Sequence record: NC_054930.1
Origin: Escherichia phage PP01
Reading direction: 5' to 3' (one strand)
Length of the DNA stretch: 64,000 nt
Position numbers and translations under genes: made by a program. Shown in pieces: positions 11,959-61,095 of this stretch. Below the pieces are notes generated by a model that worked only from the letters and a program-made list of their open reading frames with translations, searched no databases and was not told the DNA's origin. How positions within the stretch are numbered: the stretch's first letter is position 1; each line of letters opens with the position of its first letter.

Positions 11959-12561
11959 TTATAGATTAAATCCTTCAAAATCAAGAGTATAGATAGTGTA
12001 TGTTGAATACTTTTTATACTCGTATCTATCCGCAATTCTAAATACACTTCCAGCTGGTATCATTACTTCCTGTTCATCTGAAACTAATTCCATATTACGA
12101 TAACGATGGCTATCCGGAAATTTAAAACTCGGACTATATTCTTTACAACGTAGAGCTTTTATAGCATACTCCTGAAAATTAAATACCATAGGAGCTTTAA
12201 ATTCAAAAATAACTTGTGTGTTATACTCTAAACCAGAAGCAAAATGTAGAGCTATATTTTTATCATATGAAGCTGATACTACTTTATCAAATGTAATAAT
12301 ATCAATTCCTTGATTTAACACTTGCTTAGTCTCAACTGGAACACCTCTCCAAAGAGGTTTATCGTTTGGAACCAAACGAGATTTGATTATTTCATTTAAC
12401 CAGGAATGATCGTCTGGCTTATTAGTAATACAATGAATTAAAAGTTCAATTTCAGATAAATTAAATCCTTCAGAAAGTAATTCTTCACGAATAGAAGCAC
12501 GCACCGATGCATCCATTGATTTGATTTTAAAATCTTTTAATTGCATTGCTGAATATTTCAT
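11959..12561 (-). CDS. modA: ADP-ribosyltransferase ModA
   Basis: 200 aa as in T4 ModA; R / S-x-S / E-Q-E ART triad pattern; paralogue of next gene. Confidence 0.75.
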   Translation of the reverse strand: MKYSAMQLKDFKIKSMDASVRASIREELLSEGFNLSEIELLIHCITNKPDDHSWLNEIIKSRLVPNDKPLWRGVPVETKQVLNQGIDIITFDKVVSASYDKNIALHFASGLEYNTQVIFEFKAPMVFNFQEYAIKALRCKEYSPSFKFPDSHRYRNMELVSDEQEVMIPAGSVFRIADRYEYKKYSTYTIYTLDFEGFNL

Positions 12562-13193
12562 TCAACTACCTCAATATCATACACTTTAAATGTTCCAAAT
12601 GAATCGTGTAATTTTTCTTTTGAAATAGAAGTTATTTTATACTTTCCAATTGGAATCATCCATTCTTGTTCATGTACAATCATCATTAAGTTATCAGTAC
12701 GTTCTGAATCTAATCCATCAGTATCTTCATATGTATACTTAAACTCAGTATTAGGAGAAGAAAGTATAATATCGCTGATATGGTCAGAGTAATTAAAAGC
12801 TTTATCCGTTTTTAAGCGAAGTACTATTTCAGTGAAATATTCAGCATAAGAAAAAGAACACGCTGTATGCAAACTAGTAGTAAATGAATCTACTCTGTTC
12901 GTTGAAAACACTTCTCCAACTTGTAAATCTTTAATGAGTTCTTTTGTCGATTTTGATATACCACGATATAGCTGATACGGCGATTTAGTTAAATGCTTTT
13001 TAACGATTTTATTCAACTGCCGATGAAGAGCTTCATTCTTTTTGGCTTCCATACATTGCCAAAGAACTGACTGCTCAAAGTCAGTAAATTTTTCACAGAC
13101 CTTTTTATACATGTCATATTGAAAATCGACACTTTCAGCTTTTATAGATAACTGTTCAACATCTGCGAGATTAATAATCATGATAGCCTCCAT
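12558..13193 (-). CDS. modB: ADP-ribosyltransferase ModB
   Basis: 211 aa; ART motifs (YRG, STN, EQEWMIP); tandem paralogue of modA. Confidence 0.7.
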   Translation of the reverse strand: MEAIMIINLADVEQLSIKAESVDFQYDMYKKVCEKFTDFEQSVLWQCMEAKKNEALHRQLNKIVKKHLTKSPYQLYRGISKSTKELIKDLQVGEVFSTNRVDSFTTSLHTACSFSYAEYFTEIVLRLKTDKAFNYSDHISDIILSSPNTEFKYTYEDTDGLDSERTDNLMMIVHEQEWMIPIGKYKITSISKEKLHDSFGTFKVYDIEVVE

Positions 13194-18030: not shown

Positions 18031-18387
18031 TTAACCTCTATTCATAAAAGCATTAAAAATTTGGTCATCAATCGATGGAATAGCAACCTTTTCGGCATCA
18101 TTTAGCAAATCATTAATTTCATCAGATAGCATAACGCATGTACCTTTATTTCCTGTAATTGTTACTGCACAATTACGAACGTTTTCTTTATCAAATTTTA
18201 GGTTAATATTTTCGTAGTGAAAATCCTTTAATGCCGAATATATTTTTAAAATGAAATTGTCTTTTACTACAATAAACCCAACCTCACTATTAAAACGTGG
18301 TTCATGGAAACTGTAATAAACCTTTTCATCTATAAAATCGTATGAAATTTTTTCCATTTTTAAATATGAAAATTCAGAACTATACAT
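18031..18387 (-). CDS. hypothetical protein (61.2 position)
   Basis: 118-aa ORF. Confidence 0.45.
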   Translation of the reverse strand: MYSSEFSYLKMEKISYDFIDEKVYYSFHEPRFNSEVGFIVVKDNFILKIYSALKDFHYENINLKFDKENVRNCAVTITGNKGTCVMLSDEINDLLNDAEKVAIPSIDDQIFNAFMNRG

Positions 18388-59000: not shown

Positions 59001-59186
59001 TTAAAGCGTATTCACATAAGCTATTAATTCGTTTTCTTTCTTATCAAACCGGTCAGCAAATTCTTCTTGTTGTTCGGGAGATAGCGGGCCGTATTCATCA
59101 TAAAAGGTGTTTGCTTCTGCATGCTCATCTAGAAGTTCATGGATAAGCTCAAACAATTTATCTTTTTGTTCTTTACTCAGACTCAT
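59001..59186 (-). CDS. small acidic hypothetical protein (tk.1 position)
   Basis: 61-aa ORF. Confidence 0.45.
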   Translation of the reverse strand: MSLSKEQKDKLFELIHELLDEHAEANTFYDEYGPLSPEQQEEFADRFDKKENELIAYVNTL

Positions 59187-59352
59187 ATATTAATTTCCAG
59201 GAGTTTTAAAATAATTCGCTTTTGCTTAAATATTTCCGTAGTTAAATGGTCAGTATCTTTTTGACCGATTCCAATGGCAAAACCTTTATTAACAGCGAGT
59301 TCAATTAAATTATCAAGCTCACGTAACACTTCATATTGTAACTCAAAATTAT

Positions 59353-59580
59353 TCATTTTGGTTTACCTTCTTTAACGAAATCAGGATAAGGATAAAATCC
59401 TGAATAAAATCCTTCACCTTTATGATTGATGCATCCTTTATTAGAACAATAGCACCAATAATCGAAATCACAAGCCATTTCATCATTACATAAAGCAAAA
59501 ACAACTGGCCATTCACACTTTTCGCAGTGGGCATTTTTAAGAATACTAGTTTGGCTCATAACCATGTAACCTTTAAACAA
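59353..59580 (-). CDS. Cys-rich small protein (putative zinc binding)
   Basis: 75 aa; HCEKCEW...CNDEMACDFDYWCYCSNKGCINH. Confidence 0.45.
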   Translation of the reverse strand: MFKGYMVMSQTSILKNAHCEKCEWPVVFALCNDEMACDFDYWCYCSNKGCINHKGEGFYSGFYPYPDFVKEGKPK

Positions 59581-59768
59581 TATTCTTCTACGTGCTGTTT
59601 ACGACCTTTCTTATCAATAAAGGTATATTCAACGAATGTTCCAATATAGTCTTTATCTACATCATGAGGACTATTAATTGGGCATTTAGTACGGCAAATG
59701 CGTTCCCATTGACGAATAATTTCCACTTTGTTTTTAGGATCAAACGGATGCGGGTAATGTACTTTCAT
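59556..59768 (-). CDS. small hypothetical protein
   Basis: 70-aa ORF. Confidence 0.4.
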   Translation of the reverse strand: MKVHYPHPFDPKNKVEIIRQWERICRTKCPINSPHDVDKDYIGTFVEYTFIDKKGRKQHVEEYCLKVTWL

Positions 59769-60219
59769 AATCCACCACTATTAAATCAATATCAGGAGTA
59801 AACATGTCGATTAATTTAGAAACCTTATCCCAATCACCGCCAGCAATACCACAACCTATGCGTGGAATGTAAATTACTGGTTTAAACAAAAGGGTCTCTG
59901 CCTGTAGATTTAATTCTATCATGCAGTTTACTAAAGCACCATAATCAAGATTAGGACCCGGTTCGTATTGCGTATACAGGTTATAGCACATACTAAATCC
60001 TGTAGGATTATGTTTAAAAACAATAGACATATCGCCTAATTTATCACGAGAACCGTACTCGGTAGTAGTTTTATCTATTTCTAAAATTTTGGGATAGGCT
60101 CTTGCTAATTGACCCGCTACACCAGAGCCCATTGTGTGGAAGCAGTTGCATCCGTGCGCAATAATATTACCTTGAAGAAATAGGGCGACAATATCGCCCT
60201 TGATATATTTTACAATCAT
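59740..60219 (-). CDS. macro-domain-like protein (putative ADP-ribose binding/hydrolase)
   Basis: 159 aa; GDI...IAHGCNCFHTMGSGVAGQLA resembles the macro-domain nucleotide-binding core. Confidence 0.45.
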   Translation of the reverse strand: MIVKYIKGDIVALFLQGNIIAHGCNCFHTMGSGVAGQLARAYPKILEIDKTTTEYGSRDKLGDMSIVFKHNPTGFSMCYNLYTQYEPGPNLDYGALVNCMIELNLQAETLLFKPVIYIPRIGCGIAGGDWDKVSKLIDMFTPDIDLIVVDYESTLPASV

Positions 60220-60557
60220 CTAGTACTCAATCCTCGATTATAAGAATCTACCAAACGGTCAACCATTGAATGACAAGCGGCTTTATCTTTCTCCTCCGCA
60301 ACTGAACATTCTAAGGTATTCCACTTTTTAGCATATCGTTTTAACAATGTATCATTTTTATATCTGCTTGATTTATCTCTTTCTCCGTCTTTATATGCAT
60401 ATATTAATTTCTGCGCAAATTCAGCTTGGCATGCTTTATTTTTCCCACAATAATCCGCGGCAGTACGGTTTACATACTCTCTAATTTCAGTATATGATGT
60501 ATCTGCTAACGCAGAAAATGAAATTAATCCTATACATAAAACCAAAATTTTAGTCAT
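60216..60557 (-). CDS. secreted small protein
   Basis: 113 aa; cleavable signal peptide MTKILVLCIGLISFSALA; four Cys. Confidence 0.5.
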   Translation of the reverse strand: MTKILVLCIGLISFSALADTSYTEIREYVNRTAADYCGKNKACQAEFAQKLIYAYKDGERDKSSRYKNDTLLKRYAKKWNTLECSVAEEKDKAACHSMVDRLVDSYNRGLSTR

Positions 60558-61095
60558 TTACTATTTCCAAAAGTTTATTATTTTTAAGGTAATTAGCCTT
60601 TTCTAGGACTTCAGAAGCATATTTAGAACCTGCTTTAACATTCCATCCCGAATTATAAGAGGATATCGCCTTTCTTATATCGCCCTTATGTATATTTAAC
60701 CAATAAGAAAGTTCAATGTACGCCCAGGAAGCTGAATTGGACCGTTTATTCAACATTCTTTTTATTTCAGCATCGGTCATATTATAACCAAGTTCCTTAA
60801 CTCTTGCTCGCATAGTCGGCAAATAATTTTGGAACATTCCATAGGCATGATGCTTTGGTTTAGATTTTAAATTAACTCCGGCAGAGCTTTCTTGCCATAA
60901 AATAGCAGCCATTATATGACCTAATCCGCTCTTATGGATATTTTTGTGTGTTTTATATTTTCCATCCTTAGAAAATTGTTCCCCGAATTGATACGCGTAA
61001 CGCATGTTATCGAGTTGGACATTACTGAAAGTATGCTCGGAGCTATGTGCCATCATAGAAATGGCCAATAGACCAGCGAGTAGTGCTTTTCTCAT
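60550..61095 (-). CDS. secreted lytic transglycosylase-like protein (SLT domain)
   Basis: 181 aa; signal peptide; catalytic E-S motif LWQESS...YGMFQ. Confidence 0.5.
   Translation of the reverse strand: MRKALLAGLLAISMMAHSSEHTFSNVQLDNMRYAYQFGEQFSKDGKYKTHKNIHKSGLGHIMAAILWQESSAGVNLKSKPKHHAYGMFQNYLPTMRARVKELGYNMTDAEIKRMLNKRSNSASWAYIELSYWLNIHKGDIRKAISSYNSGWNVKAGSKYASEVLEKANYLKNNKLLEIVND

Follow-up and report, generated by a model that had tools for sequence, protein, structure and literature searches.

We analysed a 64,000-nucleotide stretch of the genome of Escherichia phage PP01 (NC_054930.1; hereafter the window), a segment of a Tequatrovirus (T4-like) genome, with attention to a 159-amino-acid open reading frame (ORF) that fills positions 59740..60219 of the minus strand exactly, from its ATG start through its stop codon, and whose translation begins MIVKYIKGDIVALFLQGNIIAHGCNCFHTMGSGVAGQLA. 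Phages such as BW-1 and Sf21 match the 2.2 kb around the ORF at about 98% identity. Upstream lies vs, the gene for the valyl-tRNA synthetase modifier (60216..60557, minus strand; product 97.4% identical to T4 Vs), whose TGA stop overlaps the ATG of the ORF in the sequence ATGA; downstream lies a homolog of tk.3 (59556..59768, minus strand; product 92.9% identical to T4 Tk.3 and matched by Pfam DUF7202), whose start overlaps the final 29 nucleotides of the ORF. All three belong to a same-strand run, regB, vs.1, vs, tk.4, tk.3, three small ORFs, and tk, in which the genes are tightly packed or overlapping. The T4 gene in the same slot, between vs and tk.3, is tk.4 (NP_049723), described in RefSeq as "phosphatase; contains A1pp phosphatase motif," and the same vs/tk.3 synteny surrounds tk.4 in 21 T-even-like viral loci. 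The PP01 protein is 58% identical to T4 Tk.4 over 155 amino acids, the full length of the T4 protein (159 versus 155 amino acids; E = 8e-71), and the two N termini are identical; judged by sequence and position, the ORF is the ortholog, or an allele, of T4 tk.4, which is also named adfM.

Tk.4 as a macrodomain of the ALC1/TARG1-like class

The first-pass annotation, made from the sequence alone, had likened the product of 59740-60219 to macrodomains, and this call was borne out both by a profile match and by the predicted fold. Pfam Macro (PF01661) matched the protein with an E value of 3.7e-8 and 33.8 bits, against a gathering score of 22, over model positions 2-117 of 118 (116/118); PHROG 335, which carries the label "phosphatase," matched with an E value of 4e-71; and hhalign paired the protein with the Thermus DarG macrodomain at a probability of 97.6%. 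An AlphaFold2 model, built on an alignment of 97 sequences of relatives, had a mean predicted local distance difference test score of 94.5 and a predicted template modelling (TM) score of 0.89. Foldseek searches against the PDB returned TARG1, Poa1p, Thermus and M. tuberculosis DarG, and Bt_1257, all at a probability of 1.00 and with TM scores of about 0.72-0.76. The protein is a macrodomain, with a likeness far beyond chance. Because the Pfam and PHROG matches, the model, and the Foldseek neighbours (TARG1, Poa1p, DarG, and Bt_1257) all point the same way, we place it in the ALC1/TARG1-like class, where, among the macrodomain types listed, its nearest neighbours in both sequence and structure are TARG1, DarG, Poa1p, and SCO6735/Bt_1257. 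The motifs that the first-pass annotation had quoted are indeed present in the translation; they are not, however, the MacroD-type "NAAN...GGGVA" proposed there but the motifs of the ALC1/TARG1 class, namely, H22-G-C-N25-C, M30-G-S-G-V-A-G, N80-L-Y-T-Q84, and I121-G-C-G-I-A-G-G-D-W130.

In both NCBIfam (E = 6.5e-7) and PADLOC (E = 3.4e-7), the best match was DarG, in each case through its macro part only; the NCBIfam model (NF048014) gave 28.9 bits against a cut-off of 250 and was covered from position 2 to 142 of 338. We considered filing the protein as DarG and rejected this, as the scores are about one-tenth of the cut-off and the protein has neither the catalytic Lys nor the C-terminal domain. 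No darT toxin gene adjoins tk.4, the neighbours of which are vs and tk.3.

The active site and its counterparts in related enzymes

Conservation was counted in the 97-sequence alignment and in 82 further sequences from viral loci; N80, Y82, Q84, and D49 were absent from the search patterns with which these loci were gathered. The "GD" motif, G8-D9 (60193..60198, minus strand), aligns with the GD of TARG1 and Bt_1257, and position 9 is Asp in 60 and Asn in 21 of the 82 family members. In other macrodomains, the Asp of this motif contacts adenine. H22-G-C-N25-C (60142..60156, minus strand) is invariant in the 97-sequence alignment, and N25 is found in 81/82 of the further sequences; N25 aligns with N22 of DarG and N27 of SCO6735, and H22 aligns with H24 of SCO6735 and H23 of Poa1p. 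The residue roles of the Asn and His equivalents in DarG and SCO6735 are taken from published work (PMC13309987 and PMC9411070), and those in Poa1p are taken from PDB entry titles alone. Glycine-rich loop 1, M30-G-S-G-V-A-G36 (60112..60132, minus strand), aligns with the MGxG(I/V)A of TARG1, DarG, PhiKZ gp104, and Adpp (a Vibrio phage protein discussed below), and its G33 and A35 are invariant. From what is generally known of macrodomains, we presume that this loop binds the diphosphate. Glycine-rich loop 2, P119-R-I-G-C-G-I-A-G-G-D-W130 (59830..59865, minus strand), has A126 at the position of D125, the second catalytic residue of TARG1; its core, IGCGIAGGDW, is the family consensus, whereas T4 Tk.4 has IGAGIGKGNW. 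The presence of these conserved motifs (GD, N25, and the two glycine-rich loops) makes PP01 Tk.4 a putative ADP-ribose-binding protein.

N80-L-Y-T-Q84 (59968..59982, minus strand) places Q84 where TARG1 and DarG carry the catalytic Lys (K84 and K80, respectively) and SCO6735 carries Gln85. This register was obtained from an HMMER profile alignment to TARG1, from hhalign with Thermus DarG, and from MAFFT with SCO6735 and Bt_1257. A seven-sequence MAFFT alignment instead put Y82, two residues off, opposite the catalytic Lys; we rejected this solution, which needs a compensating two-residue gap, and prefer the Q84 register because the two profile alignments, the MAFFT alignment with closer relatives, and the strand/helix register of the model agree. 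N80, Y82, and Q84 are each invariant in 82/82 sequences, H22, N25, G33, A35, and D49 show little or no variation, and all family-invariant residues are common to the PP01 and T4 alleles. Q84 is followed by an eight-residue loop, Y85-D92 (YEPGPNLD; 59944..59967, minus strand), which has no Lys or Arg and takes the position of the "mobile loop" of SCO6735. A loop of this length, uncharged in the same sense, follows Q84 in 22 of the 23 members with T-even synteny, and it equals that of TARG1 (by ungapped profile alignment) and of DarG.

Among the characterised relatives, SCO6735 of Streptomyces coelicolor and its close relative Bt_1257 share with Tk.4 the Gln at the Lys position and the Asn of the H-x-x-N motif that stabilises this Gln (H24, N27, and Q85 of SCO6735 aligning with H22, N25, and Q84), although they are only 27-29% identical to it and are cellular, not phage-encoded. 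SCO6735 cleaves thymidine-linked ADP-ribose and does so faster than DarG; its hydrolysis of DarT-modified DNA is abolished by Q85A and nearly abolished by N27S (PMC9411070). Since SCO6735 hydrolyses DarT-modified DNA with a Gln at this very position, the Gln-type site of Tk.4 is, by analogy, not an inactive site. The mobile loop of the SCO6735 subclass is five residues longer than the loop of DarG and TARG1 and is basic (K89), in contrast to the eight residues of Tk.4. The DarG macrodomain (Thermus aquaticus, 5M31/5M3E; M. tuberculosis, 5M3I) has Lys80 where Tk.4 has Gln and is only about 20% identical; of the C-terminal DarT-binding domain and the neighbouring darT that accompany it, neither is found at Tk.4. 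Human TARG1, a top Foldseek match of the same class, relies on a K84/D125 dyad, the counterpart of which in Tk.4 is Q84/A126, and yeast Poa1p, likewise a top Foldseek match of this class, is eukaryotic and, at about 170-180 amino acids, larger than Tk.4.

The chimallivirus PhiKZ encodes gp104, independently named AdfM as well, which resembles T4 Tk.4 in being a stand-alone phage macrodomain directed against DarTG2 and which removes DarT2-made ADP-ribose from DNA (PMC13309987). The proof for gp104 is biochemical, whereas the evidence for T4 Tk.4 is genetic. The FPTK motif of gp104 contains Lys78, and the protein aligns with M. tuberculosis DarG at an E value of 9e-25; with PP01 Tk.4 it shares only two short segments scoring 21-23 bits. 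Given these scores, we rejected treating Tk.4 and gp104 as one family. The name AdfM is borne by two macrodomain subfamilies, a Gln type (T4 Tk.4, near Bt_1257 and Adpp) and a Lys type (PhiKZ gp104, near DarG), which annotators should keep apart.

Likely role against DarTG2 and alternative explanations

Both the gene and its DarTG2 role are already known in the literature. In a transposon-sequencing screen on a DarTG2 host, tk.4 was the single significant T4 gene; a clean tk.4 knock-out makes T4 sensitive to DarTG2, and the authors noted a similarity to M. tuberculosis DarG and renamed the gene adfM, for anti-DarT factor Macrodomain (bioRxiv 10.1101/2025.11.20.689424). T4 without adfA and adfN is still resistant to DarTG2, and a further factor had been predicted (PMC11257639). 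The first-pass annotation had raised the possibility that the protein reverses ADP-ribosylation imposed by DarT, which agrees with these published genetics.

Taken together, Tk.4 of PP01 is probably a stand-alone ALC1/TARG1-like macrodomain ADP-ribosyl hydrolase that counters DarTG2 by Gln-type de-ADP-ribosylation of DNA. The host toxin DarT2 ADP-ribosylates thymidines of single-stranded phage DNA and blocks replication; in the proposed mechanism, Tk.4 would hold the ADP-ribose through its GD motif, two glycine-rich loops, and N25 and hydrolyse the bond at ribose C1'', leaving free ADP-ribose and clean DNA. Catalysis would do without the Lys of DarG and TARG1 and would take an SCO6735-like Gln route, in which N25 keeps Q84 in place, Q84 positions the distal ribose, and water does the chemistry. 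This explanation draws on the orthology to T4 tk.4, the T4 genetics, the DarG models as best library matches, the catalytic residues aligned with those of SCO6735, their conservation, and a loop of TARG1/DarG length; that the PP01 allele acts like the T4 allele, and that it does so by direct de-ADP-ribosylation of DNA, we infer. Tk.4 would then form part of a layered anti-DarTG equipment of T-even phages, in which AdfA and AdfN act against DarTG1 and Tk.4/AdfM acts against DarTG2, and it would help explain the resistance of these phages to a widespread DNA-ADP-ribosylating defence.

Several observations weigh against a DNA hydrolase acting on DarTG2. The DarTG2 phenotype belongs to the T4 allele only, to which the PP01 allele is no more than 58% identical, and for T4 the evidence is genetic and published as a preprint. 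The catalytic Lys of DarG and TARG1 is missing, with Q84 in its place; the long basic loop by which SCO6735 holds DNA is missing as well, and the PP01 protein is acidic, with an isoelectric point of 5.0. BLASTP scores place Tk.4 nearer to proteins of the Adpp type (77-85 bits) than to DarG (26-42 bits) or PhiKZ AdfM (23 bits). SCO6735 that has lost its catalytic activity continues to inhibit DarT through binding, so that protection by Tk.4 need not be purely enzymatic (PMC9411070).

The kinship with Adpp deserves closer description. According to a 2026 preprint, purified Adpp of Vibrio phage Gary is an ADP-ribose-1''-phosphate (ADPR-1''-phosphate) phosphatase whose gene lies between Adps and Namat, the genes of the NAD+ reconstitution pathway NARP1, and which lets NARP1 overcome aRES defence (bioRxiv 10.64898/2026.01.28.702374). 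We confirmed KNV71_gp137 as the Gary Adpp gene, flanked by Adps and Namat. Its product shows 39% identity to PP01 Tk.4 (E = 1e-26, 85 bits), and the two proteins share HxCNCF, MGxGIA, D49, KLG, NxYxQ, and IGCGLAGGDW. With Tk.4 or Adpp as the query, tblastn matched 2,766 and 2,707 phage records, respectively, of 50,697, with near-identical breakdowns by organism and host; some of the matches (H59-H61) adjoin genes labelled "ribose-phosphate pyrophosphokinase" and "nicotinamide phosphoribosyl transferase," that is, Adps and Namat. Homologs stand between or beside Adps and Namat genes in Vibrio phage Pontus (L003), Acinetobacter phage Rocket (L004), Vibrio phage Gary (L006), and loci L072, L079, and L083. 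Of the 79 viral loci, three combine an Adps-like gene with a Namat-like one, and another six have a Namat/Nampt-like gene within 5 kb. In all Adps/Namat-adjacent members, Gary Adpp included (10/10), the post-Gln loop has 11-15 residues and contains 1-3 Lys or Arg. Adpp therefore differs from PP01 Tk.4, with its short uncharged loop, in having a longer basic loop after the Gln, a demonstrated small-molecule substrate, and Adps and Namat as flanks. The operon association is published under the name Adpp; the passages that we read in this preprint (bioRxiv 10.64898/2026.01.28.702374) do not mention that the loops differ.

This kinship underlies the main alternative, that Tk.4 is mainly an ADPR-1''-phosphate phosphatase, like Adpp and Poa1p, which turns the product of aRES, a RES-type NAD+ phosphorylase, back to ADP-ribose. 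The old T4 annotation of an A1pp phosphatase motif and the "phosphatase" label of PHROG 335 favour it, as do the identity of the purified Gary enzyme to Tk.4, their shared motifs and similar tblastn record sets, and the appearance of Poa1p among the top fold matches; it is, moreover, compatible with a role on DarTG2, since one C1''-cleaving site could do both. We nevertheless regard it as rather unlikely. Adpp acts within an Adps-Adpp-Namat operon, and neither Adps nor Namat was found by tblastn in the 64-kb window, so that the product could not be recycled; nor is T4 known to encode Adps or Namat. The post-Q84 loop of the T-even members is also unlike that of all 10 Adps/Namat-adjacent members, and the sole known tk.4 phenotype is on DarTG2. 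It is improbable, too, that Tk.4 protects from DarT2 without catalysis, by binding or blocking the toxin or as a mere binder of ADP-ribose. The DarG/TARG1 catalytic residues are missing in Tk.4, and DarT is inhibited in vitro by each of the dead variants SCO6735 Q85A, DarG K80A, and TARG1 K84A, most strongly by that of SCO6735 (PMC9411070), but the catalytic Gln, Asn, and His of SCO6735 are invariant in at least 82 members, which argues for a conserved active site over a binding surface. In addition, the homolog Adpp is an enzyme, and Tk.4 is without a counterpart of the DarT-binding C-terminal domain of DarG.

Two further roles, put forward in part in the first-pass annotation, fared less well than the DarT connection. 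Degradation of ADP-ribose-derived immune signals (the cyclic ADP-ribose isomers of Thoeris) or of O-acetyl-ADP-ribose would fit a comparative survey arguing that low-molecular-weight ADP-ribose derivatives are the main targets of phage Macro domains (PMC9503650) and a weak match to the NCBIfam O-acetyl-ADP-ribose deacetylase model. That match, at 16.5 bits against a cut-off of 291, is far below threshold, however, and the nearest characterised relatives act on C1''-linked thymidine, Glu/Asp, or phosphate; the small molecule processed by Adpp is ADPR-1''-phosphate. Nothing in our analysis supports the immune-signal role for tk.4, the family offers neither contextual nor experimental support for it, and we think it very unlikely. 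Scarcely credible is the remaining proposal, that Tk.4 reverses or tunes the phage's own ADP-ribosylation by Alt, ModA, or ModB, or RNAylation by ModB. The window does encode ModA and ModB, as had been recognised at 11959-13193 (T4 ModA is 97.5% identical to the product of ORF 11959-12561, and T4 ModB is 96.6% identical to that of ORF 12558-13193), and SCO6735 and TARG1 remove Glu/Asp-linked ADP-ribose from proteins (PMC9411070). This amounts to co-occurrence only: tk.4 and modA/modB are 47 kb apart, the family also occurs beside NAD+-salvage genes in records of Vibrio and Acinetobacter phages from other lineages, and no such phenotype has been reported. Moreover, arginine-linked ADP-ribose is removed by ARH/DraG-type enzymes, not by macrodomains. 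The T4 transferases modify arginine, ModA acting on Arg265 of RNA polymerase alpha and Alt on Arg84 of MazF (PMC8120803).

Allele exchange at tk.4 and other features of the window

The divergence of tk.4 from its T4 counterpart stands out from its surroundings. Besides Vs and Tk.3, the products of tk (99.5%), vs.1 (99.4%), and regB (98.7%) are close to their T4 counterparts; at the nucleotide level, identity to T4 is 93-100% up to the tk.4 start, 52-66% across the body of tk.4, and 92% in tk.3. Compared with the T4 locus (L002), the replaced segment, 59740-60206, is sharply bounded. A PP01-type allele with at least 90% identity is present in about 311 phage records. Four T-even-like IMG/VR contigs of about 170 kb (L007-L010) also carry the PP01-type allele, with 90-94% protein and about 78-81% nucleotide identity, on flanks that are only 44-72% identical to those of T4. 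Because a divergent allele sits between near-identical flanks, and the same allele sits on divergent flanks, tk.4 behaves as a cassette exchanged among T-even lineages. The window thus adds detail to a known gene and is not a discovery: the details are the cassette exchange, the Gln-type active site, and a family shared with an ADPR-1''-phosphate phosphatase. What remains of interest is the biochemistry of an AdfM that has no catalytic Lys, its relationship to Adpp, and the mosaicism of its alleles.

More tentatively, and with rather less confidence than we place in the DarTG2 role itself, we suggest that Tk.4/AdfM and Adpp may form a single phage family that shares an invariant active site (H-x-C-N-C ... 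D ... N-x-Y-T-Q) and whose C1''-cleaving chemistry serves both anti-DarTG2 and anti-aRES functions. The substrate would be set largely by the post-Gln loop, Tk.4 might be bifunctional, and selection acting on specificity for the substrate or the toxin could underlie the allele replacement.

A second anti-DarT locus is likewise highly variable in PP01, since the counterpart of T4 61.2 (AdfA, the anti-DarT1 factor), at 18031-18387 on the minus strand, is short and divergent, with 118 amino acids compared with 208 in T4. By tblastn, the similarity to T4 61.2 is 32% identity over 144 columns and extends about 60 nucleotides upstream of the first start codon of the ORF.

Within codons 7-13 of tk.4 (60182..60200, minus strand), we found a terminator-like match consisting of an 8-bp GC-rich hairpin, AGGGCGAT-ATT-GTCGCCCT, of about -13 kcal/mol, followed by a T-rich run. 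T4 and all 11 T-even-like loci that encode KGDIVAL retain the hairpin (12 sequences, 100% paired), with a variable loop codon and a single compensated synonymous double change, in L019. Covariation is weak, as it consists of this one compensated change and 47 of 500 shuffles were equally good; the hairpin may act as an attenuator downstream of vs, may serve RNA stability, or may simply result from the palindrome formed by the G-D and V-A codons. A scan for sigma-70-like promoters gave 10 sites, against 15.5 in shuffled sequence, and we claim no promoter for tk.4.

Elsewhere in the gene run, the T4 tk.1/tk.2 stretch is replaced at 59001-59580 (minus strand) by a 61-amino-acid DUF7438 ORF (54% identical to T4 Tk.2), a 57-amino-acid ORF that belongs to no family, and a 75-amino-acid ORF with a "Phage zinc binding domain" (PF23895); no homolog of T4 Tk.1 was found in this interval. 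In the product of vs.1 (60550-61095, minus strand), a hydrophobic N terminus is accompanied by an SLT lytic transglycosylase domain, which Pfam scored at 23.4 bits (cut-off, 21.3); the label of vs.1 in some GenBank records, "endoribonuclease RegB domain-containing protein," looks like annotation carry-over. Pfam gave no matches for ModA, ModB, or Vs, the identities of which were set by comparison with T4. The modB ORF (12558-13193, minus strand) starts at 13193 and would encode 211 amino acids, whereas the match to T4 ModB, of 207 amino acids, starts at 13181; the real start is probably the second ATG.

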